A stretch of 64,000 nucleotides of DNA from a virus (IMGVR_UViG_3300044732_000737:13818-77817), one strand, 5' to 3'. Shown: positions 17,820 through 64,000, numbered from the stretch's first letter. Program-made: numbers and translations. Notes: a model not told the origin generated them from the letters alone.

Positions 17820-18415
17820 TATACCTTCCCCCATTTAAGTTGTAAAACTCCTGAGCCTTCATAAATTTGGTCAAAGGCAGTATCCGAGGAATCTCTAGAT
17901 GCAGATGCATCCTTTGTTGTATAAAAAGGTTTAGTCATATCCAAATCATTCATTGGGCTTGAACAGCCAATATTTAAAAGGACTTCACCTGTTTCTGCAG
18001 TATTTATACTATAGTCTGTAGAGTCAATTGCTCCACGATAAATTGTAATGATATTTGAAATATCTGTCTCTACTTGTTTAGTAGTTTGATTTACAAAGCC
18101 TAATTTTACATCTACGATTTTCCCTATTAAACCAGAATCAATAGTTGCGCCAAATGTAAAATTTGGATCTGCAAAACTAATTTTAAATAGTTCTCTATCT
18201 ACAGTAGATGATAGCTTAGGTGTATCAATTCTAACAATCTTACCATCACCTAAATAGGTTGCAATTGGTGTTACACCATTATAAATTGTTAGCTCTCTAA
18301 AGTAAGTAGAGGTCTTATAAGAATTAGTAGGAGATAACACTACCTCTACTAAATAAAAAGCCTCTATTACTGGTTGTGCCAATATATCTTGGACTGTTTG
18401 ACTGAATTTTATCAT
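17819..18415 (-). CDS. Minor tail (tail tip/hub) protein
   Basis: Lies between the distal tail gene and the J-like gene; ends ...DTAFDQI...LKWGKV as in siphovirus minor tail proteins. Confidence 0.7.
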   Translation of the reverse strand: MIKFSQTVQDILAQPVIEAFYLVEVVLSPTNSYKTSTYFRELTIYNGVTPIATYLGDGKIVRIDTPKLSSTVDRELFKISFADPNFTFGATIDSGLIGKIVDVKLGFVNQTTKQVETDISNIITIYRGAIDSTDYSINTAETGEVLLNIGCSSPMNDLDMTKPFYTTKDASASRDSSDTAFDQIYEGSGVLQLKWGKV

Positions 18416-19006: not shown

Positions 19007-22000
19007 TTACCTTAATCCTTTCTCTCTATTGTGGGAGTTAACCCCCTCAGCAATAGATGGGAGCATTCTATAAATTTCCGATTTTGTTTGACGACTAATA
19101 TCGCCTGTAATATTTAGATTAATTACTTGTTGATTTTGATTAGACATTGCAGAAGCAACTCTAGCTTGTTGGGCCTCATTTAGGATAACTTCACCTGCAT
19201 GAGCAAGTACTGGAGTAGCACTACCCATGTTGCCAGGAATAACACCACCAGCAGCAAATCCAGGCAAGAAACTAAAGAAAGAGCTAAGACCAGAGAATCC
19301 TTTACTAAAGAAATCTCCAATACCACTTCCAAAGACCTTCAGTTTATCTGCGAATCCACCTAGTATACCATCTTTATTACCTATCAGACCTTCAAGTCCT
19401 TGAGTAATTTTTACATACATTGGTTTTGCTTCAGAAGAGCCTAGCTCTCCAAATATACTTGTACCTAAAGATTGACCTAAGCTTTTACTAATATCCCTAA
19501 ATAAAAAGTCACCTATTTGATTAGAAAAGTTATCTATAACCGTGTTACTAAAAGCGTCAAAGAATGCTTTACCGGCATTATCCTTGCCTTTCAAAATGTC
19601 AGAGATTAAAGTCTTTCCTTGACCCAAGAAAGCTTGTTGTAATGATTGTTGACGAGATCTTTCGTCAGTAATTTGTCTTTCTTGTTCAATTAAAACAGCT
19701 CTTCTAGCAATTAGTCCTTGTAAAGTTTCACCTTCAAGTAATTGATTGTTACTAATTTTCTCGTTTAGTTTGTCTAATTCAATTCTATCTTTAATTAGCT
19801 TATTCTTTTTAGCCTCATCAAGACCTAAAATAACGGTAAGATCTAACCCAAGTAATGCAGCTTGTTTGCCTAAAGTATTCGCAGTAAGTAGTTCTTTTCT
19901 TTGTCTTTCAAGATTCTTCTTACGTTGTTCTGCCCTAGCCCTCTCATCTAGATTAGCCTGAGTAGCCCCTTTAGTTTGCAAGTTCTTGATCTTCTCTTCT
20001 TCGTCAATTATCTTCTTAGTCAATGCAAGGATATTTTCTCTTGTTTTTGCATCATAAGATAAATAATCAGCTAAATCAATATTTAAAGAGGCTAATGCGT
20101 CTTTTAATGATAACCCTAGTAATTTACTTGCTTCCTCTGTTTTGGCTTTAATTGTTGCTTTATTCTTAGAGAAATCAAGTAAGTTAGCCAATAAAGATTT
20201 GCTTGGATCATATTTTTGATCTAATGCAGTTTCAATATCTTTAGATATTGCAGTAATTTTACCTATAGTTTCTGCAGAAAGTTCTCCAAAAGATTTATCT
20301 AATAAATCAGGAGAAAACCTAAATAATTCCGTAAATGTATTGTTTAAAGTTTTAGGGCTAACTTTATCATCAAATTCTTTAATCTGTTTATCTAAAGTTT
20401 CTTTAAATTCTCCAGCCTTAACTAAATCAAGTGGTAACCCAGTTTTACTTTTTGGTAAGCTATTAATATTACTAATAGTAATACCAATTTTAGTTAGATC
20501 ATTAATTACTTCAGTTAAAGGTATTTTAGATTTAATTACATCATCTATCTTTGATTTGACATTTGATTTATTAAGCTGATCTTCTAAATTCTCTAAGGCA
20601 GTCTTTTCTTTCTCTTTTGGCTTAGGTGTAAAACCTTCACGAATTTTTCTAATTTCCTCGGTTACTACCTTACCCCTAGCAGCAATTTGTTTTCTAACTT
20701 TATCTAAATCACCTCTACCCCCTACTGTTGTATTTTCAATTTGTGAGGCTTGTAGTTGTAATTGATTAGCTTCAGTTATTAAGCTTACTAATTTTTGTTG
20801 ATCCTTAAGCGGAGCAGAGTAAATTTTACTAAAATCAGATAATGCATTAAAGTTAAGATTAAGCAATGCATCCGCAAATCCACTAGAAGCTGCCTTTGCT
20901 TGGTTTAATTGGTAAGTAATACCTACAGTCTCTAGTCTAATTCTTTGAGCTAAACTTTCTGCTTTCTTAAAATCTTCACCTATTCTTGCTGCTTCTAATT
21001 CTTTAGTTAATACACCAACATTTCTAATTCTATCGTATAATGCCGTAAATTGGCGCTCACCTAAGTTTAACAAGTCAACCCAATTAACACCAGAAATATT
21101 TGCAGTTTTTAATGCTGTTTCTATTTGATACTTAATAGTATCAGAAGCACCTTTTTCTAACTGTAATGAGACATCAATTTTTATATCAGAAATTGCTGCA
21201 TTTATATTTGAGGCTTCAGTTGCATCTTTGGTCTTAAGTAGCTGGGCTTGTAACTGTTTTAGCTTCTCAACTTTATCTTTTAGTCCAGGAAGATCTTCAA
21301 CATTAAACACACCGTTTGCATCGTAGGATATTTTTAGAGCATCTAAATTTTCTTTAAGATTTTTAATGTCCCCTTGAAATACTGTAACTTCAATATTACG
21401 AACTTTAACATCTCTAGCACGAGTAGCAACTGCAGCATAATCTTTTACAGCCTTTTCTAATTCTTCTTTTGCCTGTTGGATATCTGCTCTCTGTTGAGCC
21501 CTTTCTTCAGGAGAAAGAAAGAATCCACGGAATCCTTCTGCATTACGAAGATTTTTGAGTGCCTCATCTCTTGCTTGCGCTGTTTTATTAATAGAAGCAA
21601 CAAGTTGTTGTCTTTCTTCTCCTAACAAATCCCCTTTACCAATATCCGCAAATTCTTGAAATGCAAAATCAATTAATGCTGCTGAGTCAATAATGTCTTG
21701 ACCTAAATAAGATACATCTGTCCTAATACTATTAGTTAACCTTTTGCTCCAATCACTAAAAATTTCAGCTGATTGATCTCCATTTAAAATTAAACCTATT
21801 CTTTGACCAAAGTTAGTAAAGAATCCATAAGCAATGTTTGCATCAAATAGTTCATTGAATGGAAATGCAAAGAAGTTATAGAGCGCATCTAAAGGATAAG
21901 CAACCACTCTAGCTAATGCAGAAGTAGCAACCTGACTTACCTCAGCAGCTAATTTTAATATAGACTTCTCAACTTTTGCAGGTTCTGCTTTAAAGTTTAA

Positions 22001-25000
22001 AGTAGCAATTCTAGCATCAAAGGCAATATCTTGCCCTTGGGTTTTGCTAACTCTTTCACTAAACTTTTCATATCTATTTAATAAAGTTTCTATTTGCTTT
22101 GTTGTCTTCTCTGAAACTTCACCAAGCTCTTTTGATTCTTCTTTAGCTGCGCCTATAGATTTTTCTATAGCTTTTGACAAACTAGTAAACTCACTTACAT
22201 CTTTTGGATTAATGTATTTTAAAGAAATTTGATCAGAAGAATTATTAAACTTAGTTGATAACTCAGGATTAATTTGTTTTAGGTTATTAGAAATATTAGT
22301 TGCACGTTTGCTAAACTTTTCAAACTGGCTAAATTCTTGAATAGCTCTTGGTATTGCTTCCTTTATACCTGTAGTAAACTCAATCAAGGTGTTAGTTGTT
22401 TTTCTTAAACCATCACTAAACTTTTCTGTGAATGTGTCCCCATCACCAATAGTATAAATTAAAGCTCCAAATAAAGTAATAACCCCAGTTGCTGCTGCTG
22501 CAGTACCTGTTAAAATAGGTATGAGTCTAGCTAACCAAGATACTTTATTCGAAGGGCCCATTAGAGCTGCATCTTTTAATAATCCAAATTGTTTTAACAC
22601 AAACTCAAAAGCCTTTGAGACGCCTGCACGAACAGAAGAACTACTTAGTAAAAACCATCCTAGTAAACCGCCTTCTAAAGCATAATTAGATACTGTAGCA
22701 GCAATGTCCATTACTCCAGCTTTTGCTTCAGTAGTAAATAAAGTAATTAATGCACTTAATGCGATTACTGTACCTGCTTTACCGAATAATATTTTTCCGA
22801 TTGCGCCTGTAGTTCCAAAAGTAGCGCCTAAACCCGCTAGTCCAGTAAATTTACCTTTTACAAACTCTAGGAATAAGTCTAGTTCCGCCTTTATTTTACT
22901 AGCTGCATTTAGCCCAGTAGCAGAGTTTAATATTGTATTTTTACTTACATCATTAGCTGCTTCTTTAGCAATACTACTTGCAGTGTTAACATAACTACCA
23001 AATGAATATGTTACTCCATCTGGTTTAGAACCAAGTATGAGGGCTTTTAGTAAGGAATCACCTGTCTTTGTAGCAGATGCAGCCTTATCTGCAGATTCTT
23101 TTGCTGTCTTAGTGAAATTACTAAACATATCTTTATCCATGCCAGCACCAGCCATTGAGAAGTCAGCAGCAGTAAAGCCACCTTTCATTCCTGCCTTTGG
23201 TCCAAAAATAAAATCAGATAAGGATAGTCCACCAGCTAAGAAAGATTTCTTACGTTCTTCATCAGTTACCCTCTTAATACCAGTAAACAATTTAGCAATT
23301 GTTGACTTTGCATTAGTTAGAATAGTTCCAGCAACGGTGCCATTATCAAATAATCTGGCAAACATATTTTGTAATACTGAACTACCTGCAGTTTGTGCAG
23401 TGATCATTGCTGTAATCTTTAAAAGAATACTCCTGACAGTATCAACTAGAATTTTACCGGCTACATCTCTACCTAAAATTGCAGTAAGTAAAAGTGGTGT
23501 TGCAACAAATGCGGCCTGTACAAAGTTTACTTCTTTTGTAAATACAGAGAGCAAAGCTGTAATACCGGCTACAGCGAAAGCGACATCAACCTTATCACCA
23601 AACACACGTTTAATAATTGATTCTTGTGTAAGTTTCTGTGTAGCGCTAGAAGATAAGATACCTCCTAATCCTTTGCTAACTTCTGAAATTTGTTTTGTAA
23701 TTTGATCAAAACCAACAACTCCAAATATCATTAAAGGTAAAATCCCAGTTTCACCTAATGTTAAAAGATTTAAAATACCTTTAATACCATTACCAATAAG
23801 ACCTAAATCACCTAGGAATTCGTTAATAAAACCTGAGCTAAAGCTTATGATTGCTCCGATAATAGAAGGGATTTCTTCAACAGCACCTTTTAATAAAGTT
23901 GCAAGAGTAGAACCTAAGTTCTTACCAATTTCACCAATGATTGAAAAATCAAAAACAGAGGATAATCCATTTTCTAAAGCAGAACCTAAATTCTTTGCTA
24001 GATTAATTCCTAATACAGCAACAAAAGTAGATAATGCTGCGGGACTAACTAAAGAGGCAATAATGCCACCAACAACGGCAGTAGACGCAACCCTAGCTGC
24101 TTTTTCTAATGAATCAGAATTAATTGATAACGTGTCTGTAATTTGTCCGCCAAAGTCACCAAAAGAAAAATCTTTCCTTGATAGGTTACTAAATAAGTTT
24201 ATTACGGAAGAACTAAAAGCTTTTATTTTCCTGGTACCCTCAGATACTAATTTATCTGACCAGTCCAAAATTCCTTCTACCATGTCTGGCCAGTAAGAAC
24301 GACCAACTACTTTATCGTAAATATCGAAAAATACCGCTTTAACTTTAATTCCAAAGGCACGAATATCAAGATACACATTGTTTAAAAGTTTAGTATACTT
24401 GTCTATTCTTTTTACACTCTCCTCATAATATCCAGCGTACTGTAGCTCAATCCCAAGGTTATGCCTAGCTCGCATTCCAATACCTGCAGCCGCCCTAACT
24501 AGAGCTGCATTACCTCTTCCAACTTGTTCAGTTGCTGATTTATAAAAACCAGATAAAGAGGAAAATAAATTTGAGGAAAAAGAAGAACTTAAAGCATCTT
24601 TAAATTTAATACCAAAAGTAATAAATAGTCTTAATGTGTCATCAAGTAAAGTTATAATTGAGTTTTTAACTGCCTTTGTAGATACTTGAAACCCTGTTGC
24701 AAATTTGTTTATGTTTAAAAGTCCAATTGATGAAACCATTAGCACTAAACTATTTGTAACACTTACAGCAAACTTCTCGGTGTATGCGGAAAATCCAGAA
24801 AGGCTAAAGATAAATCGGCCAATAGTATTTGACACGTTACCTAATACACCTCCAAATGACCTTCCTAATTCAATTAAATATGAACCAACAGATTGTGTTG
24901 CTAACTGGAAAGCAATAATAAATTTTTGGAAAATGACTGCGCCTAGTCTGTCAAAGAGTCTTATTATTTCAGATACATAATCTCCAATTGCTTTTATTTT

Positions 25001-26374
25001 GTCAAATCTCACATTGCCAATAACAATTAATTTATTTTCTAAAAGACCTAGACTAGCTAAGAATTCTCTGAATGGCATTAGGAATTTAACAATCTCTCGA
25101 TAGTTTAAGGCATCTAATAATGCTGTACCAATCTCTACGTCACCTGAAAGTATTTTCCACCATCCTTGTAGACTAGTCAAGTCTGGGTCTTTAATTACTT
25201 GCACAAGATTAGCAATATTCTTTTGTAGTTCAGGTATAGATTTTGACAAGGCTATTCTTGATATTGCATCAAAAAAGTCAGATTTATAATCTACGCCAAA
25301 GAATTGTAATGTTCTTCTAAATACAGCTGCAGTTGCTGTCAATACGCTTTTTAACCTTATAGACTCTTCTGTATAAAGTTTTAGGAATGCAATATTTAGA
25401 TTAGCACCTAATTGAAGTTGTAAAAAGGATACAACTGGAATTAATCTTTTAATCTCAATACTTAATTGAGCAAACAATGGAGCTACTGATCTACCTAAAT
25501 CTGCTGCAGTATCAATTGTGTTTTGAATACTAGCGGAAATAATAACTGCAGAGGTAACTATTGCATTTCTATTTTCAGCTATAATATCTGCTGCTACACT
25601 AATTGCTTTAGCTATTCCAGGAGTTGTTCCTGTTTCAGTAAAAATTTCACCTAAAGTTAGTCCCGATATGTTTCTTATTTTTAATAAAGATTGACTAATT
25701 GTTAATCCTACTTTTTCAAATTCAGCAGAGATTTGTTTAGATTGACTAGATAGTGCATCAAAAATAGCTTCGGTAGTTACTTTACCTTCTTGAGCTAAAG
25801 CACGAAGCTCTCCAAGGCTTACCCCTAGGCCATCTGCGATAGCTCTAGCGAGTCTAGGTGTTTGTTCAAATACTGAGTTAAGCTCTTCTCCACGGAGAGT
25901 GCCTGACTGTAAACCCTGATTAAGCTGGGTTAAAGCTGCTTTAATAGAGTCTGCAGAACCACCAGAGACAATGCTTGCCTTCTGAATAGTATCTGTAATT
26001 TTTAAAATTTCACTAGAAGGCTTTTTAAGAGATTTTGCTAATCCCGAAAATACTTCTGTCGTTGATTCAATGCTTGTTCTTGTGTTTTGGGATATCTTAA
26101 CAAGTTCTTGTTGAACTCGAATAAGCTCGCCCATATTATCTATACTTAATGAAAGTCTAGAATTTAATTGAACAAAAGAATCAGAGGTTTTCTGCACAAC
26201 AGCTGCAAAGCTGAATCCTGCAACAACTCCTGCAACGCTCTTAGCGAGAGAGGCAATCGAATCTGCTGTCGATTTTGCTGTATTCTCAATACCTTGGACT
26301 GACTTATTCAGTTTATTAAGGTCACGCTGGGCCTGTTGAGAATCAGAAGATATCGTAAATTGAATATCTGACAT
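19007..26374 (-). CDS. Tail tape measure protein
   Basis: 2455 aa, helical; N-terminal tape-measure domain QLNQGLQSGTLRGEELNSVFEQTPRLA; C-terminal FAAGG...AHAGEVILN. Confidence 0.95.
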   Translation of the reverse strand: MSDIQFTISSDSQQAQRDLNKLNKSVQGIENTAKSTADSIASLAKSVAGVVAGFSFAAVVQKTSDSFVQLNSRLSLSIDNMGELIRVQQELVKISQNTRTSIESTTEVFSGLAKSLKKPSSEILKITDTIQKASIVSGGSADSIKAALTQLNQGLQSGTLRGEELNSVFEQTPRLARAIADGLGVSLGELRALAQEGKVTTEAIFDALSSQSKQISAEFEKVGLTISQSLLKIRNISGLTLGEIFTETGTTPGIAKAISVAADIIAENRNAIVTSAVIISASIQNTIDTAADLGRSVAPLFAQLSIEIKRLIPVVSFLQLQLGANLNIAFLKLYTEESIRLKSVLTATAAVFRRTLQFFGVDYKSDFFDAISRIALSKSIPELQKNIANLVQVIKDPDLTSLQGWWKILSGDVEIGTALLDALNYREIVKFLMPFREFLASLGLLENKLIVIGNVRFDKIKAIGDYVSEIIRLFDRLGAVIFQKFIIAFQLATQSVGSYLIELGRSFGGVLGNVSNTIGRFIFSLSGFSAYTEKFAVSVTNSLVLMVSSIGLLNINKFATGFQVSTKAVKNSIITLLDDTLRLFITFGIKFKDALSSSFSSNLFSSLSGFYKSATEQVGRGNAALVRAAAGIGMRARHNLGIELQYAGYYEESVKRIDKYTKLLNNVYLDIRAFGIKVKAVFFDIYDKVVGRSYWPDMVEGILDWSDKLVSEGTRKIKAFSSSVINLFSNLSRKDFSFGDFGGQITDTLSINSDSLEKAARVASTAVVGGIIASLVSPAALSTFVAVLGINLAKNLGSALENGLSSVFDFSIIGEIGKNLGSTLATLLKGAVEEIPSIIGAIISFSSGFINEFLGDLGLIGNGIKGILNLLTLGETGILPLMIFGVVGFDQITKQISEVSKGLGGILSSSATQKLTQESIIKRVFGDKVDVAFAVAGITALLSVFTKEVNFVQAAFVATPLLLTAILGRDVAGKILVDTVRSILLKITAMITAQTAGSSVLQNMFARLFDNGTVAGTILTNAKSTIAKLFTGIKRVTDEERKKSFLAGGLSLSDFIFGPKAGMKGGFTAADFSMAGAGMDKDMFSNFTKTAKESADKAASATKTGDSLLKALILGSKPDGVTYSFGSYVNTASSIAKEAANDVSKNTILNSATGLNAASKIKAELDLFLEFVKGKFTGLAGLGATFGTTGAIGKILFGKAGTVIALSALITLFTTEAKAGVMDIAATVSNYALEGGLLGWFLLSSSSVRAGVSKAFEFVLKQFGLLKDAALMGPSNKVSWLARLIPILTGTAAAATGVITLFGALIYTIGDGDTFTEKFSDGLRKTTNTLIEFTTGIKEAIPRAIQEFSQFEKFSKRATNISNNLKQINPELSTKFNNSSDQISLKYINPKDVSEFTSLSKAIEKSIGAAKEESKELGEVSEKTTKQIETLLNRYEKFSERVSKTQGQDIAFDARIATLNFKAEPAKVEKSILKLAAEVSQVATSALARVVAYPLDALYNFFAFPFNELFDANIAYGFFTNFGQRIGLILNGDQSAEIFSDWSKRLTNSIRTDVSYLGQDIIDSAALIDFAFQEFADIGKGDLLGEERQQLVASINKTAQARDEALKNLRNAEGFRGFFLSPEERAQQRADIQQAKEELEKAVKDYAAVATRARDVKVRNIEVTVFQGDIKNLKENLDALKISYDANGVFNVEDLPGLKDKVEKLKQLQAQLLKTKDATEASNINAAISDIKIDVSLQLEKGASDTIKYQIETALKTANISGVNWVDLLNLGERQFTALYDRIRNVGVLTKELEAARIGEDFKKAESLAQRIRLETVGITYQLNQAKAASSGFADALLNLNFNALSDFSKIYSAPLKDQQKLVSLITEANQLQLQASQIENTTVGGRGDLDKVRKQIAARGKVVTEEIRKIREGFTPKPKEKEKTALENLEDQLNKSNVKSKIDDVIKSKIPLTEVINDLTKIGITISNINSLPKSKTGLPLDLVKAGEFKETLDKQIKEFDDKVSPKTLNNTFTELFRFSPDLLDKSFGELSAETIGKITAISKDIETALDQKYDPSKSLLANLLDFSKNKATIKAKTEEASKLLGLSLKDALASLNIDLADYLSYDAKTRENILALTKKIIDEEEKIKNLQTKGATQANLDERARAEQRKKNLERQRKELLTANTLGKQAALLGLDLTVILGLDEAKKNKLIKDRIELDKLNEKISNNQLLEGETLQGLIARRAVLIEQERQITDERSRQQSLQQAFLGQGKTLISDILKGKDNAGKAFFDAFSNTVIDNFSNQIGDFLFRDISKSLGQSLGTSIFGELGSSEAKPMYVKITQGLEGLIGNKDGILGGFADKLKVFGSGIGDFFSKGFSGLSSFFSFLPGFAAGGVIPGNMGSATPVLAHAGEVILNEAQQARVASAMSNQNQQVINLNITGDISRQTKSEIYRMLPSIAEGVNSHNREKGLR

Positions 26375-27740: not shown

Positions 27741-27763
27741 TCTCTCTTTAGCGTCCCCTGGTA
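27741..27763 (-). promoter_or_regulatory. Phage RNAP promoter, copy 2 (TACCAGGGGACGCTAAAGAGAGA; predicted +1 at 27746)
   Basis: Identical to copy 1 over 23 bp; intergenic. Confidence 0.85.
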
Positions 27764-29610: not shown

Positions 29611-30702
29611 TTAAGCGTGGAGAATAGGTAGAATACCTAAGTTCAATGCGCTCATCTTACGTGCCCATGAACCAGCAGTGGCATAATTAGCGTTGCTAGC
29701 GAAGGCATTAGTAGCGCCAGCCCAGTCGTAACCCATTGGGTGTACAACGAAACCATAGCGATACCAGATAGCGGTAGAACCACCACCAGTATAAGAAGCA
29801 GCTGAACGATCAACTTCAACAGGTGTAGGAACAGCAATGTTTGTAAAGCTGATAGCACCTGGCTTGCAGATGAATGTGGTCTTTACAGAACGGTCATTTA
29901 CGTTAGCAGAGGCAGACAAGTCACCTTGAGCAACACGGCTCAAGATCAAACGGAACTTACCACCGAACACGGTTTGGAATGTCAAGTTACCATCGGTAAC
30001 AGTTGTGACATCAACCAAGTTAGCAGCACGCAACTCAGCCAACACTTCAGGTGAAGTGATCATGTACATGAAGTCTGGCTCATAATCCTTAAAGCCCATA
30101 CCTAGAGCTTGGAATAAACGCTGACCACGAGCAGCACCAATAGCTGTAGCGTCAAACAGCTTACGCTGATCAGATGCAGAAGTAGCAGCAGCACCAAAGG
30201 TACCGGCAGCGTTAATATCTACGAAGCTACCAACACCAGCGCCATCAGCGTCTGTGTCATAACCAACGATACCAGCACCACGAGAAACTTCGTATGCAGC
30301 TACACCTTTAAGTGTGGCGATAACGGCATCAGACTCGTCTTGGCTACGAACTTCAGAGAAGTCACGAGCAATCTTAGAGAGGCCATCTTGTTGTGAAACA
30401 ACTTGTTGTAGATTGACTTGCTCAGAACCAAAGGTACGAACTGTCTTAATGTAGTCAGCAATTTCGGTAGACACATCAGTGTAAGTACCTGCATTGGCGA
30501 CAGAGAGGCTAGCAACGTTAATGTTAGCTGCCAAAGGCTTGTACCAGCGCATTTGACCAATGAAGCTTTCGCCTGTTGGGTCAATACGGGCATCAGTACC
30601 AACGATGCCAGTGCTGTTAAGCTTCTTGGCATTTGTGTACATTTCGTCAGCGTATGCAGAAATAGCAATAGCTACGTTTTGGAACATTGTATGATTAATC
30701 AT
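29611..30702 (-). CDS. Major capsid protein
   Basis: 363 aa, strong codon bias, CAGGAG RBS, follows scaffold; VPTPVEVDR...GGG...RYGFVVHPMGYDW coat-protein motif. Confidence 0.9.
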   Translation of the reverse strand: MINHTMFQNVAIAISAYADEMYTNAKKLNSTGIVGTDARIDPTGESFIGQMRWYKPLAANINVASLSVANAGTYTDVSTEIADYIKTVRTFGSEQVNLQQVVSQQDGLSKIARDFSEVRSQDESDAVIATLKGVAAYEVSRGAGIVGYDTDADGAGVGSFVDINAAGTFGAAATSASDQRKLFDATAIGAARGQRLFQALGMGFKDYEPDFMYMITSPEVLAELRAANLVDVTTVTDGNLTFQTVFGGKFRLILSRVAQGDLSASANVNDRSVKTTFICKPGAISFTNIAVPTPVEVDRSAASYTGGGSTAIWYRYGFVVHPMGYDWAGATNAFASNANYATAGSWARKMSALNLGILPILHA

Positions 30703-30722: not shown

Positions 30723-31418
30723 TTAAAAGGTGAAGCTACCAAGCTTTCCACCTGCGGCAAGTGCTAACACTTCCTCGGTGGTCATTTCAGTAATCTTCTT
30801 GTTGGGATCGAGTTTGGGAGTACCGTTCATATTGTTACTACCACCCCCTGAATTAGATTTAGGTTTAAATAGGAAGGAATTATCTTCATTCTTCACATAT
30901 TGTCCTACAAAATCTTTGATTGATACACCTGATTTATGAATCCATGCACCAGTCTCTGGATCTTGGATGAGTTGATCGATAATATCACGATAAGCCATTT
31001 GGCTAGATCGGTCATTACGGAAATCAAGGTTAGTTAATGCATTGCGAACTGCACCATCTCTAGTGAGTTCAGTTACTTTGCTTTCGGCCAACGCAAGCTT
31101 CTCAGTGAGTTCTGCGAGCTTCATCTCAGCAACTTCTTTATGCTTACCTTCGTCCTCCAAAGCTTTCATCTTACGTTGTTTAGCTTCATCTTCTAAACGA
31201 ACACGCTCTTTAACAGCATTGTCACGTTCTTGATATGCTTTATCTAAACTAACTTTAATTTTAGAAAGACGCTCTTCAACCAAACGGTTAATCATGTCTT
31301 CTGTATCTTTGTTGTTAGTACCGCCTCCACCAGTATCAACCTGATCGGCTTGAAACTCTGGGTTAGGTGTGGTACCATCATCGAGGAACTCTTTGTTTCC
31401 GAACTTATCTACTTTCAT
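30723..31418 (-). CDS. Capsid scaffolding protein
   Basis: Acidic N-terminus, coiled coil, FLFKPKSNSGGGS C-terminal motif, directly upstream of the capsid gene. Confidence 0.8.
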   Translation of the reverse strand: MKVDKFGNKEFLDDGTTPNPEFQADQVDTGGGGTNNKDTEDMINRLVEERLSKIKVSLDKAYQERDNAVKERVRLEDEAKQRKMKALEDEGKHKEVAEMKLAELTEKLALAESKVTELTRDGAVRNALTNLDFRNDRSSQMAYRDIIDQLIQDPETGAWIHKSGVSIKDFVGQYVKNEDNSFLFKPKSNSGGGSNNMNGTPKLDPNKKITEMTTEEVLALAAGGKLGSFTF

Positions 31419-31484: not shown

Positions 31485-34400
31485 TTACGGTCCAATACCA
31501 TACCAATCCATACCTTTAGGTATAGGAGCTAGTATATCTTTTCTCGTAATTTTGTTGCGAGGATTTAGTAAGCCATCCTCAATAGCTTTTTGGCGAAGTC
31601 GATTGTATGTTTCATTTGACATACCTTCTTCTTTTAGTGCCAGTAATGTTTTCTCTATTGTCTCACCTTCTAAAGCATCTGCATAGATTTCTCTAAGAGC
31701 TACTTTGGACTTTGCTGCTTGTCCTATGTTGGTGAAGAAAGCATCGTGAATCGTTGCGGTTTCAATACCACTTTTACGACCCCATAAATGAAATCTTCTT
31801 ACAATAGCGGCATCATTCATGTGGTTACCGTTAACCCCCATGCCAATGCCAGCCCTTTGGAGGCTTGATTTTCCTAGAAGTGAAGCATCTTCTGCTCGAT
31901 CTTCGTAAATATTACGGACCATCCTGTTAGCTTCTTTGTCATAGAACTCAATGCTAGTTTGGATTTTAGGTCTGTATCTCTGGTATAAAGTCTTACCATC
32001 AAATGTTACCCAAGGTACATCGACCTTCTGAGTTTCATCAACGTAAGCTTTAGCAGCTTCTTTCCAGAATTGTACGAATTTTTGAGTTACTGGTGCTCTC
32101 TCAGCTAGTCTCCGAGACATAATCTCTGACACTGCCTTGAAGTCTTGAGGACCAATTAGTCCCTTACGAGCATTCATTAACTTATCGACAAACGCTTCTA
32201 CGTCTGGGTGAGAATCACGAGCGTGTGCTAAAAGTTCTTGCCCCACAGAGGTTTCACCTTCAACAACTTCGTTTAACTCACGTTTTAATTGTTTAAGACC
32301 AAATACGACATTTTCAGCTCCTAGCCTATCTGCCTCTTTAATCTTTGCATCTATAATATTAGTTACTCCACGAAGTTCTTCACGGGTAACAACAGTATAT
32401 CCTTTTGTCTCTAACACTGAAGCAAACTTAGCTTCAATATTAGCTGCTTGTGTTGCTTTACCTGCACCATAGAAAGAAACCATGTTTTGTGCTTTTGCAG
32501 CCTTTTGAAGATCTGTCCACTGAACATTAGCATCTCTCAATCCTTGTATTTTCTGAAACTCTGGATCAGACACTGTATCCATAGCTACTAAGTCATACAA
32601 ACGATTTTTTTGTAATGTAGGTAATACGTTTGAGTTGATTGAAATATCTCTATCCCCAGTACTTAATCCGATGATCTGAGCACCAGAGGATGAAGCATCA
32701 TTCTCAATCATTAATTTTGTCTTATATGTCGCTAGTTTATTTACATCAGTAAAGTCACCACCTACATGATCATATATACGAGCATACTCAATAGCTAGTC
32801 TGGAGATTTTTGGAATCTCTTCTGCCTCAGTAGCTCTGATAATAGGATGCTCTAGAAATTCCCTGATACGCCTATCACGTTGGGTAGTTTCCCTCATTAG
32901 GCGACCTAAACTTAAAATATCTCTTTGATTTCTCATAAAGATTTCCATCCGACCTGCTTGTGTTAACGCCTCAGTAGCTGGACCAATCATAGAACCAGTT
33001 TGAATCATTAACTCCTGAACAATTTCAGGTGTAACGGCCTCTGCCTTAGCAGTATTCAAGAACGGACGAACAACTTCACCACCAGTAGGTGTTAAGAAAC
33101 CTTGATAGTAAACACGACCACGACCATCGATATTAGCAACAACGCTAAATGGCTTTCCAGTATCTCGATGATACTTTACAGTCTGCATAAAGCTATATCC
33201 CTGATCTCCACGAGTCAAAATAAGTTTTCTAAAGTCATTTAAGTCATCATACTTTTTTACATTTCCACGAGGATCTCTAAAGCGAACAACATCTTCCATA
33301 AATCCAGCATACTCATTATCAACCTCATATTTCACTGACATTGTGTGATTAAGCATATCAGCAAAATCACGATCAATTAGTACTCTGTCATAATTAGCAT
33401 TAGCTCTACGTGTAATAATCGGAATACCTGTGTTATTGCCTCTAGCATCAAAATAAGTCTTAGCTCCAGGTCTTACATAAAGCTTATCTCTATCAGAGTT
33501 AATACCAATTCGTTTTGCTAATAAAGCACTACGATTAGCCCTTTGTAAGTTGAGCATATCTTTATTTAAGATCTGAACTTCACGACTAACAGTATCTCTC
33601 CAAGGACCACTAGCACGACCAGTCTCAAGATCAACAACTGATCTCCTAGTCTTGCCACGCATAAGTACACGGATGTAGCCTTTGTCTTTTAATGCTGTAA
33701 GAATCTGCGATCCATCAGCATGGTAGTCTTGTAGTGTAGGCTTAAAGAATGGGAAGTCTGCGACATTCCAAGATTCTCTTAGTGTTTTACCTACATTAAT
33801 TGCCAATGAATCGTAGTCAGTTGACTTACCATCAGCAACAACAGTCAATACCTTTGATAAGGTATCAATTGCTTTCTTGTCGTTTAAACCGCCCTCTACT
33901 AATTGATTTAAATAACTTTGTCTTCGTTTACCGAATAAAAACTCTAAGTCCACAATCTTACGATAGTCTTCTCTTCTGTTTCTTAAGAATTCATCAATTA
34001 ATCTTTCACTAGGTACTTTGTCTTTAAAAAAGAGTTTAGCTCCAGGAACATTACTTAACAAGAATTTAACTACTTTGTCTTTGAAGTTATCAACACCAAT
34101 TCTGGGAGCACCTCTAAACCAAGTATATACAGGAGTTCTTCCAGTATAATACAAAGATCTAGCTAATGGCCTACCTTCTGTAGTAGCCCAATTACGAACA
34201 TAACGTTGATTATCAATATTATTTTCGATAATCTCGTCAAATGTATAGTACTTACCAAAGATCTGAACTTTAGCTGGCTCTCCAGCGACCCCATAAGAAT
34301 CAAACTGCTGAGATCTAGCTCTTGATCTACGATCTAAAATACGGCTTGTGTTAACTACAGAATATTGCATTTCACCACGAGTAACATTCATAAAGTTAAC

Positions 34401-35903
34401 CCATGGTTGCTTATCGTTATTGTATCGCTCAAAAATAACACGTAGATTCTCTGCAATAGCAGTCTGTTGATTTACAGATACTGAATCATCTAAGCTTTCA
34501 ACGAATTGTTGAATCCATGCTTTTTGTTCTTGATTAAGAGCCTTAGAATTTTTAATAAAGTCTATACGTTCTTGTAATACATTAAAGTCTGGATCATAAA
34601 GTAAAGTAGAACTTTGTTCGCCTGTGAAAGGATCAAAGCTATTGTTACGTTCATCAAACTCATTGTTTGCTCTAATTCGAACTGATCGTTTACCTGCTAG
34701 AGTAGTACCACGATAATCTACTAAAGAAATAGTCTGAGCAGTATTCTCAGTGTCTGCAATATACATTGCCTTTAACTGTTTAGTAGCCTCTGTATTCCTC
34801 ATTAGTTCATATGGTCTAGCCACATTAATTGCAAACAGATTAGACTCTGCCTCGGCTACAGCTGACTGCCTAGTTGGGAAGAAACTTGTTCTTGCATTAT
34901 CAAGCTTCCTTAATGCAGCAATGCTTAGTTGTTGACCTTTAGCAGTCGTAAATGCTTTTACATCCAAAATACCTTTCTGTAATAGTCCAGCACGCTCCTC
35001 ACTACCTAGATGTTTAACTTGAACCATCATAGGCTGGCGCTTAAGCCAAGAACCGTAAGTTTCTACTGGTGGTAAACTACCATCAACAAGTTTTTCAGAA
35101 GTTTCTCTTAGCTTGTTAACCTTTACTCTTGTATCTTTTGCCTCAGCAGCTTTTAATAGTTCTTCTTTGTTCTTTAAAACAGGAACCATAGAGCTACGGC
35201 AATTCCAGTGAAGTGGTGGTCTAAATCTTAGATCATCAATCTTGTATACTTGGCCATCATGGTGTGCACAGACTCTTGAAGTTCTATTGTCTAGTACAGC
35301 AGTAAATCTGTAACCTTTTAAAACCTCTTTATTACGATCCATTACTAAATTAAGCGCTTGTGCTTGTGTATTAGTAATAGCAGTCCTAACTAAAACCTTA
35401 GCCTGAACCTCAGTCAGGGTGGTTGTTTTAATTACATCTGAAATAATTTCTTTTACTGGCTTATTGTCTGCTAAACCAGATTTAATCTTTCCATCAATCC
35501 TAGCAAGTTCACTCGTACCAACAGTATCAAAGTGATCCCTTAAGCTTTTGGATGCTGTAATGTTAGGTCCAATAAGTTTAGGAATAGCATCACTACCCCT
35601 AGGCTTTTGAACTCTGAAGAATGAACCAGCACTCTTCTCTAAATTGTTAGCATGAAAGCTTACAGAGGCATCTGCATAGTCACTAACTGAATTGCTAGCA
35701 ATCATGTGCAACTCTTTTGTTGCTCGAGTTACCTCTGGCTTTACATCGGCCTTAATGTTCTTTGTTAAGAGTACTCTAAGGCGCTTTTGATGTCTACGAA
35801 TGCCCCTACTTACATTAGTGGAGGTCTCCGCTTCATATAGTCTTGTATCAGCTAAGTGCTGTACAATTCTGTCATAAATTTCCGTATTAATAGGAGTTGG
35901 CAT
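31485..35903 (-). CDS. MuF/SPP1-gp7 minor head protein fused to a T7/SP6-family single-subunit DNA-directed RNA polymerase
   Basis: N-terminus: LDNRTSRVC..DG...PPLHWNCRS (MuF). C-terminus: DGRGRVY, motif A ENDASSSGAQ, motif B KAQNMVSFYG, WVTFDG..Q.Y..IQT specificity-loop entry, NGNHMND, motif C IHDAF. Start probably ATG 35903 (AAGGGG RBS); track start is 35921. Confidence 0.92.
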   Translation of the reverse strand: MPTPINTEIYDRIVQHLADTRLYEAETSTNVSRGIRRHQKRLRVLLTKNIKADVKPEVTRATKELHMIASNSVSDYADASVSFHANNLEKSAGSFFRVQKPRGSDAIPKLIGPNITASKSLRDHFDTVGTSELARIDGKIKSGLADNKPVKEIISDVIKTTTLTEVQAKVLVRTAITNTQAQALNLVMDRNKEVLKGYRFTAVLDNRTSRVCAHHDGQVYKIDDLRFRPPLHWNCRSSMVPVLKNKEELLKAAEAKDTRVKVNKLRETSEKLVDGSLPPVETYGSWLKRQPMMVQVKHLGSEERAGLLQKGILDVKAFTTAKGQQLSIAALRKLDNARTSFFPTRQSAVAEAESNLFAINVARPYELMRNTEATKQLKAMYIADTENTAQTISLVDYRGTTLAGKRSVRIRANNEFDERNNSFDPFTGEQSSTLLYDPDFNVLQERIDFIKNSKALNQEQKAWIQQFVESLDDSVSVNQQTAIAENLRVIFERYNNDKQPWVNFMNVTRGEMQYSVVNTSRILDRRSRARSQQFDSYGVAGEPAKVQIFGKYYTFDEIIENNIDNQRYVRNWATTEGRPLARSLYYTGRTPVYTWFRGAPRIGVDNFKDKVVKFLLSNVPGAKLFFKDKVPSERLIDEFLRNRREDYRKIVDLEFLFGKRRQSYLNQLVEGGLNDKKAIDTLSKVLTVVADGKSTDYDSLAINVGKTLRESWNVADFPFFKPTLQDYHADGSQILTALKDKGYIRVLMRGKTRRSVVDLETGRASGPWRDTVSREVQILNKDMLNLQRANRSALLAKRIGINSDRDKLYVRPGAKTYFDARGNNTGIPIITRRANANYDRVLIDRDFADMLNHTMSVKYEVDNEYAGFMEDVVRFRDPRGNVKKYDDLNDFRKLILTRGDQGYSFMQTVKYHRDTGKPFSVVANIDGRGRVYYQGFLTPTGGEVVRPFLNTAKAEAVTPEIVQELMIQTGSMIGPATEALTQAGRMEIFMRNQRDILSLGRLMRETTQRDRRIREFLEHPIIRATEAEEIPKISRLAIEYARIYDHVGGDFTDVNKLATYKTKLMIENDASSSGAQIIGLSTGDRDISINSNVLPTLQKNRLYDLVAMDTVSDPEFQKIQGLRDANVQWTDLQKAAKAQNMVSFYGAGKATQAANIEAKFASVLETKGYTVVTREELRGVTNIIDAKIKEADRLGAENVVFGLKQLKRELNEVVEGETSVGQELLAHARDSHPDVEAFVDKLMNARKGLIGPQDFKAVSEIMSRRLAERAPVTQKFVQFWKEAAKAYVDETQKVDVPWVTFDGKTLYQRYRPKIQTSIEFYDKEANRMVRNIYEDRAEDASLLGKSSLQRAGIGMGVNGNHMNDAAIVRRFHLWGRKSGIETATIHDAFFTNIGQAAKSKVALREIYADALEGETIEKTLLALKEEGMSNETYNRLRQKAIEDGLLNPRNKITRKDILAPIPKGMDWYGIGP

Positions 35904-35948
35904 ATTTCCCCTTGATACCATACAATATATGCATCAAGGATGCCCGTA

Positions 35949-37574
35949 TTATACAGTGTTGTCGTTGTCATCGTCCCTATTATTAGGGCGCATATTATCT
36001 GTGTCTGAGATAGAAGAATCTATGCTCATTGCCTTAGTGTCTACTAGAGGGTCACTCTGGATCTCTGCTATGCCATCTTCATCGTTGTACTCAGCTGGGA
36101 GCACATCATTGAACTTAGCAATAGAAATAAATGTAGAACGTGGAATAATACCTTGCTGGTACCACTCTGTAACTAGTCTCATCCAGTCTGCGCCTACTGG
36201 TGTAGGATTAAAGTCAGCACTTAATGTGAACTTAATATCTGTTGGAAGAACATCAATATTGTATTTCCACTTAAGCATTACTGTAATAATCTGTCTCATT
36301 GTCTCTGAGATACGAGTATTGAGCATACCTAGTTGGGCAGTCTGAGCAGCATTACGGATTTCTAGACTTACGCCTGACTCACCTGAAGAGCCCTCTGGTG
36401 AAAGCATACGAATGCCCATACGAGCCATTTCTTCAATAGTAGCCGCAATAGCTTTTTCCATATCTGCTAAAGCGCCTGTTGGAGTGTCCAATGCTCTAAT
36501 GTCGTCTCCAGCACGGAGCTTAATCCATGAGCCAAGACCTGCCTCTACAATAGTTTCAAACTCTTCATCAGTCATATCTGACATTACTACTGGAGTGTAT
36601 GTAGCTGCACCATAAAGTAAGTGATTACGTCGGCTAATCTTGTTGTACAAGGCAATCTCACGATCAATCAATGATTGTAGGATTGGTTCAACAGGGTCGA
36701 TCTGACCATTCAATGGATAGGCAGGAATGAAGTTCATTCTCTCACCGTTCATCAAAGGTACTTCTGTACGTGTCTTTACCCATGCTGCATTAGCATTGTC
36801 TGTTTGATACTTGGATGTAACATTACCATTAATAACGCTTACAGACTCATTAGTGTCTCGTGTGTAAGTATCTACGACAAGCAGTCCTGACTCATCTAAA
36901 TAATAGTGAGTAACAGTGTCTACATAGTCTGGGTGGAATTCATTTTTAGAATAGTCTTCCATGTAGTAACGGAAAAGTAAACTTGTTAATACTTGTTTGT
37001 TAGTATTACGGTCTTGACCCCTACGCCAGTTAATAATGTTCTCTGCTTGAATGAGCATTACATATGGGGACAAAGCCTTGGCCTCTTCCATAGTGAGAGC
37101 GTCTGGATTAGCTACTGTAGGGTAGTCTACCAAACACCAAGCCCTAGAAGACTGTAGCTCTTCCCATATAGCCGCATCTAAGAAACCATGTAGTGAAGTA
37201 CCATCAGCACCAAAAGAAGTACGAATCCAGTCTTCAGTTCCTTCAGGAAATACATTCTCTGGAAGCTCAATAGCTGCTTGCTTACGTAATAAGCCGCCTA
37301 CAAGAACCTTAGCATACTGTGCTGTTAGTCCAGGAAGCTCACCCTCAGCACGATAAAAGTTGTACTGTTGCGAACTCATTGTGGGAGAGAAGGGTAATAG
37401 TAAGTTATTGTACGTTACAGTATCAATTGAGTCATCATATGCTCTTGCATGAGTCTGTCCATTAAGAACAGCTCTAGCCCTCTCCCAGAGAGGCCGCATA
37501 GACTCATATGCTGCGTTAGGATCCCCAAGGCTCTTCGTCTTAGCCTTTGATGGGGTCGTTGTTAGGTTTGCCAT
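35949..37574 (-). CDS. Portal protein (DUF4055-like)
   Basis: 541 aa; YESMRPLWERARAV, YNFYRAEG, LVDYP, PYVMLIQAENIINWR motifs; lies upstream of MuF. Confidence 0.88.
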   Translation of the reverse strand: MANLTTTPSKAKTKSLGDPNAAYESMRPLWERARAVLNGQTHARAYDDSIDTVTYNNLLLPFSPTMSSQQYNFYRAEGELPGLTAQYAKVLVGGLLRKQAAIELPENVFPEGTEDWIRTSFGADGTSLHGFLDAAIWEELQSSRAWCLVDYPTVANPDALTMEEAKALSPYVMLIQAENIINWRRGQDRNTNKQVLTSLLFRYYMEDYSKNEFHPDYVDTVTHYYLDESGLLVVDTYTRDTNESVSVINGNVTSKYQTDNANAAWVKTRTEVPLMNGERMNFIPAYPLNGQIDPVEPILQSLIDREIALYNKISRRNHLLYGAATYTPVVMSDMTDEEFETIVEAGLGSWIKLRAGDDIRALDTPTGALADMEKAIAATIEEMARMGIRMLSPEGSSGESGVSLEIRNAAQTAQLGMLNTRISETMRQIITVMLKWKYNIDVLPTDIKFTLSADFNPTPVGADWMRLVTEWYQQGIIPRSTFISIAKFNDVLPAEYNDEDGIAEIQSDPLVDTKAMSIDSSISDTDNMRPNNRDDDNDNTV

Positions 37575-41573: not shown

Positions 41574-41607
41574 TGTAATCCTTTTGGCTAACGCCAGTTA
41601 TAAAGAA

Positions 41608-41676
41608 GAGCAGTAGTGGGATTCGAACTCACATTCCAGAGATAACGTCTGATTCTACCTATTGAACTATACTACT
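41608..41676 (-). tRNA. Atypical tRNA-like element (shortened anticodon arm, no encoded CCA; identity undetermined)
   Basis: Acceptor AGTAGTA/TACTGCT, TA-GTTC-AATAGGTA-GAAT D arm, GTGAG-TTCGAAT-CCCAC T arm. Anticodon/variable region is 3-4 nt short and lacks U33. Confidence 0.6.
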
Positions 41677-41765
41677 CTAGTGACGCCTTTTACTGTAGCG
41701 ACAACAGCCCTAAGGTGGGTTCTTGCTGAATATCTCATGAACTTAATCACTTGACTATCAGATTG

Positions 41766-42136: not shown

Positions 42137-43462
42137 TTAAAACATAAAGCCTTTAGTAACTGTCTTAGTACCTGAACGAACAGGAAATAAGTATTCAACA
42201 GCATAACGAAGAGCATCTGTCCAGTGTTCTACGTTCTCTGCCTTAGATATCTGTGCTGTATTTGGATTGTTTTCAACCCATACAGTTCTTTCAAGAGACC
42301 TAATAGTGTGTTCTGCTCTAGGGTGTACATACATATCGATATCACCATGAGCATTCTTAAACTTACGGTTAACAGCAGCTACTGAGTCAACAATAGGAGG
42401 AGCAGCCTTGTGTGCTCTACAGATAATACCATGACTCTCTAAGATGGAGAAGTCAGTAGCGCCAGCAACAGCACTAGTCTTCCTAGCTCGTCCTGCAGGG
42501 TCTGGATAAGCGAATACTTTATGACCTTTATCCTTGAATTGTCCTTTAAGCTTCTTAGCTAATTGTTCAGTATCGAGAACATTCTGCATGTCCTCTAAGA
42601 TATGAATCTGTCCAGCTCTAACAGCAAAGACTACAGCAGCCATAATGCCAATGTTAAAGTCAATAGCCACATGGACATCTTCTTTGTTTGTTGTCTCTAC
42701 ATTGAAGTATGGTAGATCAGCAGTCACATGAGTCTTACGATCAAACATGTAGAATACCTTAGCGCCAGAGTCCTCAAAGGAACACTCATACTCTCGAGCA
42801 AACTTCATAGGGTCAATCAGACGCTTAGTCCTCTCGATCTCTTCCACAGAGAGATATGGGGAGTCCCTATAGGTATATCTAAAGGTCTTCCAACGGTTGT
42901 CCATAGACTCAAAGTTAGTCATGTCGTAGAAGTAATTCATACCCTTAGGTGTACCAATAATAAGAGCCTTATGGTTACCTGCCCAACGTGTAGTCATAGC
43001 AGGTTGAATAATAGATTCCCAAGACTCTTTAAGTCCTGGCTGACCAGTCCAGTCAGAGACCTCATCTCCAACAACAAAGTACTGACCCGATCCCCGCATC
43101 CTCTCAGAGGCTTCATAGGACCATAGCTTAAGCTTCACATTGTTCTGAAACCAGAATGTTCCAGCTGTCTGAGATGACTTCTCAGCATAATCCTCTAAGC
43201 CTAGGTTGTAGGCTAGTAGAGGCCAATAAATATCTAACGACTGTTGGTATGTTGGACAGATAATCGAGACGTTCTTATTAGGAACATCTTCAGGCATCTC
43301 TAGCAACTCATGAACAGCCATTGTAGCAGCAACACTAGCAAGGTAACTCTTACCAAAGCCTCGTGAAGCTACTGTAGCAGCATATCTAGTGCCACCCTTT
43401 TCTGAGAACAAATACTTTAATACTTCAGACTGACCTCTGTGTAATTTAATTTCATTTGACAT
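42137..43462 (-). CDS. terL: Terminase large subunit
   Basis: Walker A SRGFGKS, Walker B VVGDE, IIGTPKG, nuclease AIDFN and HWTDALRY. Confidence 0.95.
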   Translation of the reverse strand: MSNEIKLHRGQSEVLKYLFSEKGGTRYAATVASRGFGKSYLASVAATMAVHELLEMPEDVPNKNVSIICPTYQQSLDIYWPLLAYNLGLEDYAEKSSQTAGTFWFQNNVKLKLWSYEASERMRGSGQYFVVGDEVSDWTGQPGLKESWESIIQPAMTTRWAGNHKALIIGTPKGMNYFYDMTNFESMDNRWKTFRYTYRDSPYLSVEEIERTKRLIDPMKFAREYECSFEDSGAKVFYMFDRKTHVTADLPYFNVETTNKEDVHVAIDFNIGIMAAVVFAVRAGQIHILEDMQNVLDTEQLAKKLKGQFKDKGHKVFAYPDPAGRARKTSAVAGATDFSILESHGIICRAHKAAPPIVDSVAAVNRKFKNAHGDIDMYVHPRAEHTIRSLERTVWVENNPNTAQISKAENVEHWTDALRYAVEYLFPVRSGTKTVTKGFMF

Positions 43463-44813: not shown

Positions 44814-44836
44814 TCTCTCTTTAGCGTCACCTGGTA
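44814..44836 (-). promoter_or_regulatory. Phage RNAP promoter, copy 3 (TACCAGGTGACGCTAAAGAGAGA; predicted +1 at 44819)
   Basis: 22/23 match to copies 1 and 2; heads the packaging-lysis-head gene run. Confidence 0.85.
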
Positions 44837-45433: not shown

Positions 45434-45456
45434 TTTCTCTTTAGCGTCCCCTGGTG
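45434..45456 (-). promoter_or_regulatory. Phage RNAP promoter, copy 4 (CACCAGGGGACGCTAAAGAGAAA; predicted +1 at 45439)
   Basis: 21/23 match to copy 1; fits in the short gap before the hydrolase gene. Confidence 0.82.
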
Positions 45457-49054: not shown

Positions 49055-49279
49055 TCATTTTATTTCCTCATAGTGTGTCCCATTATAGGATTCAATAAAT
49101 TTCCATTTACGCTCACATGAACTACAACTTAAATTTCCAGTTGTAATATTCAAATCAGCCTGTAAGTTATTACCATTACGATCATATGCAGGTAAAGTGT
49201 ATGCAGCAGTTCTAACAGTGTTAGTAATGTAGAATCTACAGTCACTTCTCAAACAACTTAATAATTCAAAATTTGTCAT
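49055..49279 (-). CDS. Hypothetical protein (possible Zn ribbon)
   Basis: CxxxC...CSSC. Confidence 0.6.
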   Translation of the reverse strand: MTNFELLSCLRSDCRFYITNTVRTAAYTLPAYDRNGNNLQADLNITTGNLSCSSCERKWKFIESYNGTHYEEIK

Positions 49280-49578
49280 GTGTGTTCTATTATTTCAATT
49301 CCAGCTTCTTTTATAGCTGATAAGCAGATTGGGCAAGGTTTAGCATTTAATGGGTCACCCTGTCTACCATATCTAGCTACAAAGATTCTGTGTGCTTTAC
49401 TAAGATCTTTGCATTTAAGAATAGCATGTACTTCAGCATGAAGATAAATCTTATATGGTTCACCAACCTCTTCGGCATGACGTGCCATTAGAGGGTGGCT
49501 CTTCACATAATTGTTATATCCAACTGAGAGTACACGGCCCTTCTTATCATACACGATGGCAGTCAGGGCGTGTCTCAT
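49276..49578 (-). CDS. Cytidine/dCMP deaminase-fold Zn protein
   Basis: HAE and PCPIC motifs. Confidence 0.8.
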   Translation of the reverse strand: MRHALTAIVYDKKGRVLSVGYNNYVKSHPLMARHAEEVGEPYKIYLHAEVHAILKCKDLSKAHRIFVARYGRQGDPLNAKPCPICLSAIKEAGIEIIEHT

Positions 49579-63999: not shown

Positions 64000-64000
64000 G

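Follow-up and report, generated by a model that had tools for sequence, protein, structure and literature searches.

A MuF minor head protein fused to a predicted T7-type RNA polymerase in a siphovirus-type genome, with candidate promoters for two phage polymerases

The fusion protein and its distribution

The viral record IMGVR_UViG_3300044732_000737 contains a gene that joins a MuF minor head protein to a T7-type RNA polymerase (RNAP). The window analysed here is a stretch of 64,000 nucleotides, bases 13818-77817 of the 77,817-bp viral record, and positions are those of the window unless genome positions are specified. The minus strand carries nearly all predicted genes and every gene to which a function was assigned. 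The fusion gene is a single open reading frame (ORF) without interruption and occupies the classical portal-MuF-scaffold-capsid slot, as an earlier note made from the sequence alone had described. Its residues are numbered from 35921. The true start is probably the second ATG (35901-35903, M7), which would give a protein of 1472 aa, because this codon is preceded by an AAGGGG ribosome-binding site at a distance of 5 nt and the nearest homologue (92% identity) has 1472 aa. The gene and its parts are as follows.

31485-35921, minus strand: MuF-RNAP fusion, whole ORF, 1478 codons plus stop
34866-35897, minus strand: MuF (SPP1 gp7) minor head protein module, residues 9-352, predicted from Pfam, hhalign, BFVD fold matches and invariant residues
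34224-34865, minus strand: linker domain particular to the family, mainly helical, residues 353-566; no fold could be assigned
33141-34223, minus strand: T7-RNAP-like N-terminal (promoter-binding) domain and thumb, residues 567-927, predicted from an AlphaFold2 (AF2) model aligned to T7 RNAP 38-420
31488-33140, minus strand: RNAP palm and fingers, residues 928-1478, predicted from Pfam, phmmer to T7 RNAP, hhalign and invariance
32697-32699, minus strand: motif A, D1075
32493-32495, minus strand: motif B, K1143
32466-32471, minus strand: motif B, Y1151-G1152
31743-31748, minus strand: motif C, H1392-D1393

The N-terminal part had been taken for a complete MuF protein, and the profile searches bear this out with module bounds of 9-352. 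Pfam Phage_Mu_F (PF04233) matches residues 148-245 with 43.2 bits (curated cut-off 29.6), and the PHROG head morphogenesis family matches residues 46-437 (E 6e-52). When a profile of 43 family members was compared by hhalign with gp59 of Pelagibacter phage Kolga, a stand-alone MuF protein of 633 residues, residues 9-352 aligned with the first 348 residues of gp59 at a probability of 100% (E 1e-47). The core residues D211, T214, C218, P236, H238, C241, R242 and S243, which form the pattern LDxRTSxxC ... PPxHxNCRS, are invariant in all 43 sequences. A predicted structure of residues 1-570 has a predicted local distance difference test (pLDDT) score of 86. Its matches in BFVD are predicted minor capsid and head-morphogenesis proteins of many phages, among them the MuF-ADP-ribosyltransferase fusion of Xanthomonas phage Xp12. 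A PDB-wide structural search with the same model gave only generic helical-bundle matches over residues 22-220, with Z of about 11 or less, and matched no solved MuF structure. The complex predicted for a portal alignment and residues 1-345 scored 0.00, which speaks neither for nor against binding. The linker (residues 353-566) is conserved within the family and was modelled with pLDDT mostly between 75 and 95; it lies outside the span of the PDB matches for both the N-terminal and the C-terminal model and had no Atlas match.

The C-terminal part resembles T7 RNAP in sequence motifs and in predicted fold. Pfam RNA_pol (PF00940) matches residues 1059-1434 with 28.9 bits, above its curated cut-off of 22. 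The PHROG RNA polymerase family phrog_414 matches residues 908-1165 (E 6e-23), and the match to the N4-like PHROG is faint (E 3e-4 over 117 residues). For residues 340-1478, the AF2 model reached a pLDDT of 81.9 and a predicted template-modelling score (pTM) of 0.74. Foldseek ranked T7 RNAP first among the matches of this model (E 5e-19), and VIA-align superposed residues 567-1476 on T7 RNAP 42-882 with Z 33.0 over 617 aligned positions. The scores were lower with yeast and human mitochondrial RNAPs (Z 27-29), the N4 mini-virion RNAP (Z 18.2) and N4 RNAPII (Z 15). The room that the earlier note had left for a promoter-binding domain is filled in the model by a T7-like domain with thumb, which contains a long beta-hairpin at about 750-784 and is preceded by the additional linker. 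A second beta-hairpin, at about 1319-1342, occupies the position of the T7 specificity loop. By these models the C-terminal 910 residues are a whole T7-type enzyme with N-terminal domain, thumb, palm, fingers and specificity-loop hairpin.

All the T7 landmarks named in the note were recovered in order by hhalign to T7 RNAP (98.2%), at an identity of about 16%. D932xGRGR corresponds to the D421 region of T7 RNAP, D1075 to D537, K1143 to K631, M1147 to M635, Y1151-G1152 to Y639-G640, H1367 to H784, D1370 to D787 and H1392-D1393 to H811-D812. Across 43 homologues, the most distant at 18% identity, eight residues never vary (D1075, K1143, Y1151, G1152, D1370, D1393, R936 and R952), and H1367 is kept in 39 of the 43. 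From its sequence the fused RNAP looks active. Profiles, models and invariant residues together confirm the prediction that a complete MuF module is fused to a complete T7-type RNAP.

The same architecture is widespread. A word-indexed search returned at least 250 homologues of about 1450-1600 aa; among the matches listed, nearly all have the MuF domain and most have RNA_pol above threshold. An exhaustive search with the polymerase half alone gave 128 representatives at 50% identity. Apart from fragments, these representatives are about 1400-1550 aa long, or more where a stretch is inserted, and have the RNAP in their C-terminal half. Even the most divergent full-length members, with 23-30% identity in the RNAP half, start with Phage_Mu_F. 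The fusion was found in only two isolated phages, the roseophages DSS3_VP1 and DSS3_PM1 (Naomviridae), with 48.7% identity over 99% of the length; their orthologues are annotated as 'minor head protein-like' or 'head morphogenesis' (YP_010105321.1). An assembly chimera, which the note had named as a possible cause of the junction, was rejected, as more than 250 proteins from independent assemblies and two isolated phages share the architecture. Judged by this sequence distribution, the fusion is ancient and obligatory.

In the metagenomic EBPR siphovirus 1 (gp47-gp49) the fusion, at 32% identity, is split by an HNH endonuclease gene. Three other homologues of 1821-2073 aa match the polymerase in two or three stretches. 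These longer or split members suggest that inteins or introns interrupt their polymerase half; the gene in the window has no such interruption.

A free RNA polymerase and two classes of promoter-like motif

A second, free and canonical T7-like RNAP of 722 aa is encoded outside the window (genome 5042-7210, minus strand). It matches RNA_pol with 270 bits, ends in YAFC and is orthologous to gp080 of DSS3_VP1 (49% identity). With this enzyme present, the fused one is not needed as the general phage polymerase. The earlier note missed the free RNAP and the two promoter classes described below, which lie largely outside its coordinates and make a two-polymerase relay concrete.

The class-II motif consists of ACCAGGGGACGCTAAAG followed by a purine-rich start and is close to the SP6 promoter. 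Four sites were found in the window against 0.06 expected, all of them intergenic and sense-oriented.

45439-45455, minus strand: class-II site ACCAGGGGACGCTAAAG, in front of the late operon to which the fusion gene belongs
44819-44835, minus strand: second class-II site, ahead of the terminase/head operon
27746-27762, minus strand: class-II site before the tail genes, with a small hairpin plus T-run in front of it (27783-27769)
11548-11564, minus strand: class-II site ahead of the fibre genes

A fifth site lies right after the free RNAP gene, outside the window, and is retained in relatives. DSS3_VP1 has at least seven class-II sites (ATAGGGTGCGTTAAAGAG and variants). We infer that the class-II sites are read by the free RNAP.

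The fusion ORF is the sole MuF gene in the complete genome, and the order of the genes around it is identical in DSS3_VP1. Its neighbours are the following.

35949-37574, minus strand: portal protein of the DUF4055 type, directly upstream of the fusion (phrog_145, E 2.5e-58; PF13264 in homologues)
30723-31418, minus strand: scaffolding protein, directly downstream of the fusion (phrog_206, E 2.4e-11)
29611-30702, minus strand: major capsid protein (phrog_247, E 1.8e-27)

No strong terminator was found between the class-II site at 44819-44835 and position 27783, a stretch that holds the late operon with the fusion gene. Because the gene lies downstream of class-II sites with no strong terminator between, its product would be made late, together with portal and scaffold.

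The other motif, which we call early, occurs at a single site about 5 kb outside the window (genome 8862-8891, minus strand). The hairpin and T-run that terminate the late genes stand immediately before it, and it is followed downstream by small early ORFs and the free RNAP gene. The site reads AAAAAGTGAGAAAAATGACGTATCTATAAT(A)GAAGAA, and the general form is AAAAAGTGAGAAAA-N8-ATCTATAAT(A)GAAGAA; in the studied genome a small palindrome, TATCTTAAAAGATA, follows it. Relatives have one or two copies per genome. Relatives at 60-92% RNAP identity share the motif over a length of about 30 nt, and it is identical even where the free RNAPs share only 60-65%. The outer blocks, AAGTGAG/AACTGGG and CTATAATGAAGAA, are retained even in the clade at 47-49% identity and in DSS3_VP1; the latter phage has the early motif twice, at 35785-35830 and 36232-36277 (35.8 and 36.2 kb). 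The stretch from -12 to -5 is clade-specific, as it is among the T7, T3 and SP6 promoters. In the few clades compared, the fused and the free polymerase diverge in parallel along the phylogeny. The early motif was not found in EBPR siphovirus 1. In Pelagibacter phage Kolga, which has a stand-alone MuF protein and a free RNAP, one match with one mismatch was seen without the upstream block; a reversed control pattern matched as well, and the Kolga match was dismissed as chance.

Several G+C-rich hairpins share a conserved TTTTTTATCAAAA / TTTTTTAATCAAA tail. They lie at genome 8935-8899, 7364-7319 and 4438-4410 and at window 44851-44839, all on the minus strand, and the pattern recurs in relatives and in DSS3_VP1 (TTTTTTACCAAAA). 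Hairpin and tail together may be a phage-specific terminator signal.

A proposed polymerase relay and its alternatives

We favour a relay between the two polymerases and hold it, taken as a whole from docking to handover, to be moderately probable. The MuF module would dock on the portal during procapsid assembly, by analogy with SPP1 gp7, and one or a few copies of the fusion would be built into every capsid. At the next infection the polymerase would reach the cell with the DNA. There the capsid-borne enzyme would fire at the single early promoter-like site that heads the early block, and free RNAP would be made. The latter would transcribe the replication, head, tail and fibre genes from the five SP6-like promoters ahead of them, and the operon with the fusion gene, one of those served, would yield the next generation of the fused enzyme.

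The steps of this relay differ in strength. SPP1 gp7 is a portal-binding protein of which each capsid holds 1-2 copies (PMC5576092), and MuF is often fused to effector enzymes that are proposed to be delivered with the DNA (PMC5512222). By this analogy packaging of the fusion is likely, because it is the only MuF in the genome, its gene belongs to the late head operon, and gp7 is portal-bound at low copy. We further infer that the fused enzyme is catalytically active and that each motif is used by the polymerase to which we assign it. The proposal of the earlier note, that MuF acts here as a capsid-loading tag delivering a transcription enzyme with the DNA, is partly supported overall.

Several findings weigh against the relay. 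Delivery into the cell is its least secure step, because SPP1 gp7, in work by Vinga et al. from 2006, was reportedly not detectably co-ejected with the DNA in vitro and instead tethered the DNA, once released, to the particle. Entry into the cell is not a necessary property of a MuF anchor, and the paper describing DSS3_VP1 and DSS3_PM1 mentions neither an RNA polymerase nor virion proteomics. The gp7 result, together with the expression of the fusion gene along with the late genes, would fit a protein that is not delivered at all. Its RNAP part could be cleaved off or could act as a late-phase polymerase in the producing cell, or the whole protein could stay behind as an anchor for the DNA end in the capsid; the only use of the fusion would then be co-expression or a structural role. 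However, late transcription is already covered by the free RNAP with its promoters before the middle and late genes. All full-length members examined, even those at about 20% identity, have the fusion, which is hard to explain by co-expression alone, and an enzyme of 900 residues with invariant catalytic residues is not expected of a purely structural anchor. We judge non-delivery to be quite improbable.

The early motif raises a different difficulty. When an infection begins, no free RNAP is there yet to transcribe its own gene; the motif would have to be served either by the host RNAP or by an incoming polymerase. It contains a perfect TATAAT, in all relatives, and a sigma-70-like site, TTCACT-18-TATAAT (10/12), stands just before the free RNAP gene. 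On these grounds the fusion may be packaged while the host RNAP starts the infection from the TATAAT-bearing motif in the sigma-70 manner, as with the T7 early genes, and the capsid polymerase may have some other job at entry, such as pulling in the genome by transcription or priming replication. Genome entry of T7 and N4 is indeed driven by transcription, and T7 and mitochondrial RNAPs prime replication, which counts for this alternative. If the host RNAP makes the free polymerase, as in T7, the fused enzyme is left without an assigned promoter. Yet no -35-like hexamer stands at the right distance from the TATAAT of the early motif, and phages with no more than 60-65% identity between their RNAPs have exactly the same 17 nt where the spacer would be. 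The conserved blocks together cover about 30 nt, as promoters of single-subunit RNAPs typically do, and the motif is shared with a phage of the alphaproteobacterium Ruegeria. Scans for sigma-70 sites found no more of them than in shuffled sequence, a result that neither proves nor excludes host promoters; the lack of enrichment tells, if anything, against a start by the host RNAP. The length of the motif and its clade-specific pattern favour a single-subunit polymerase, and a start by the host RNAP seems to us unlikely.

Two features of the polymerase half itself also count on the negative side. T7 R627 aligns with Q1139, which varies in the family (A/Q/S/R), with the adjacent K1140 kept in 42 of 43 sequences; this landmark was absent from the list in the earlier note. 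The chain ends in DWYGIGP instead of the FAFA foot of T7, with Y1474 and G1475 kept in 40 of 43, and its end takes the structural position of T7 residue 883. The loss of R627 and the strong divergence from T7-like RNAPs (28.9 bits against 270 for the free enzyme) could mean that this half is catalytically dead or re-purposed, for example as a sequence-specific DNA-binding module that holds the genome end in the capsid. Against this, both catalytic aspartates, the motif B lysine and Tyr-Gly, and D1370 are invariant family-wide, with H1367 in 39 of 43, and the full polymerase fold is predicted with high confidence. A dead polymerase thus appears very improbable.

The relay that we favour has a close parallel in N4. 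N4 gp50 (Schitoviridae) contains a single-subunit RNAP of the T7 family within a large virion protein that is made late, packaged in few copies and used for early transcription at the next infection, after which a second phage RNAP takes over. The logic proposed for the MuF-RNAP phage is the same, although the parts differ. The fold of the fused RNAP is closer to T7 (Z 33) than to the N4 mini-virion RNAP (Z 18); the loading module is MuF, and the phage is a siphovirus whereas N4 is a podovirus. The candidate early promoter is linear and of T7 style, and no N4-style hairpin was seen at it in the clade of the studied phage. None of the N-terminal injection and C-terminal encapsidation regions of the N4 type, such as the zincin-like peptidase domain (Iyer 2017), was found in the fusion, where Pfam and PHROG matched only MuF/minor-head and RNAP families.

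The T7/SP6 RNAPs (Autographiviridae) and the mitochondrial RNAPs share with the fused enzyme the fold over T7 42-882, the catalytic residues, the specificity-loop hairpin and the N-terminal domain. In contrast to T7 RNAP, which is a free early protein, the enzyme forms here the C-terminal two thirds of a head protein, shares only about 16% identity with it and lacks the R627 equivalent and the FAFA C-terminus. The known MuF-effector fusions (Jamet 2017; Iyer 2017), including that of Xp12, likewise have an N-terminal MuF encoded next to the portal gene and a C-terminal enzyme proposed to travel with the DNA; their known cargoes, however, are toxins and host-modifying enzymes, mostly in temperate phages, rather than an RNAP. 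Thermus phage P23-45, a siphovirus, has a virion RNAP fused to its tape measure and then uses a second, non-virion RNAP (10.1101/2022.12.01.518664). Delivery by fusion to a siphovirus structural protein would be common to both systems; the P23-45 enzyme is a two-barrel RNAP on the tape measure, unlike the T7-type (Pol I-like) RNAP on a head protein here.

DSS3_VP1 and DSS3_PM1, whose DNA contains deoxyuridine (dU), are also among the closest systems. Orthologues of the fusion and of the free RNAP (49%) occur in them, as do both promoter classes, with the order unchanged. The studied phage differs in that it has a Dcd-like deaminase without a YfbR-type dTMP phosphatase; no YfbR-type HD phosphatase was found in it. 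Two of its genes belong to the cytidine/dCMP-deaminase family (62643-63059 and 49276-49578, both minus strand), and the first product shares 38% identity with the DSS3_VP1 dCTP deaminase, an enzyme characterised by experiment.

To our knowledge, virion-delivered RNAPs are known from few phage groups only, and each has taught something new on transcription and genome entry. Besides N4 gp50, the routes by which RNAPs reach the capsid are the two-barrel enzymes of crAss-like phages and P23-45 and the multisubunit virion RNAPs of jumbo phages, such as the PBS1/AR9 and phiR1-37 groups. If the relay is true, a virion RNAP would be common to all known groups of dU-DNA phages, a hint that such genomes need their own initiating polymerase, and the start of transcription in the uracil-DNA Naomviridae would be explained.

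Iyer 2017, Jamet 2017, Rihtman 2021 and the literature searches made yielded no published description of a MuF-RNAP fusion. RNA polymerase is absent from the MuF cargoes in both surveys (Iyer 2017, Jamet 2017) and in the Jamet supplementary tables searched, and virion RNAP modules were described as confined to N4-like phages (Iyer 2017). Virion RNAPs and MuF-effector fusions are thus known separately; their combination, the T7-like enzyme and the promoter pair are not. MuF docking may be a further, independent route of RNAP loading, in which one or two complete T7-type copies enter the cell, fire one dedicated promoter, switch on a second polymerase of T7 type and make the infection independent of the host RNAP from the first minute; on this stronger claim we consider the case evenly balanced. 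The design puts a compact T7-like enzyme of about 900 residues on one of the commonest siphophage head proteins. It is widespread (hundreds of environmental genomes) and has cultured members on Ruegeria pomeroyi, which makes the hypothesis directly testable. If it holds, MuF would be shown able to load a large enzyme into the capsid, so far only hypothesised for MuF toxins. Two new orthogonal T7-type polymerase/promoter pairs with concrete candidate promoters would become available, and the 'minor head protein' annotation of the fusion genes would be corrected.

Other features of the genome

The genome is complete, of siphovirus type and 77.8 kb long. Its ends overlap exactly over 127 bp (window 63874-64000 against genome 1-127). 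This indicates a closed circular assembly at k = 127 and is uninformative on the physical ends, despite the label 'direct terminal repeat' of the record. In the direction of transcription the order of genes is terminase large subunit, endolysin, PhoH, portal, fusion, scaffold, major capsid protein, a tape measure of 2455 residues and very large tail/fibre proteins. The terminase row and the three largest tail-region genes are listed below.

42137-43462: terminase large subunit
19007-26374, minus strand: tape measure, 2455 aa, which implies a very long tail
11997-17834, minus strand: tail-region protein of 1945 aa, almost without family match
1648-10578, minus strand: tail-fibre-like protein of 2976 aa

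A tRNA with the anticodon UUA, which reads UAA and is called 'tRNA-Stop' by ARAGORN, lies between the terminase and lysis genes (41607-41677, minus strand). The genes read normally under code 11 in spite of it, and the tRNA may be a suppressor, a decoy or a mis-call. In DSS3_VP1 a tRNA-Asn adjoins the fusion gene. A homologue of the ClpP/S49-like 'head maturation protease' is encoded at 55015-55698 (minus strand), in the replication and nucleotide-metabolism block, far from the head genes.

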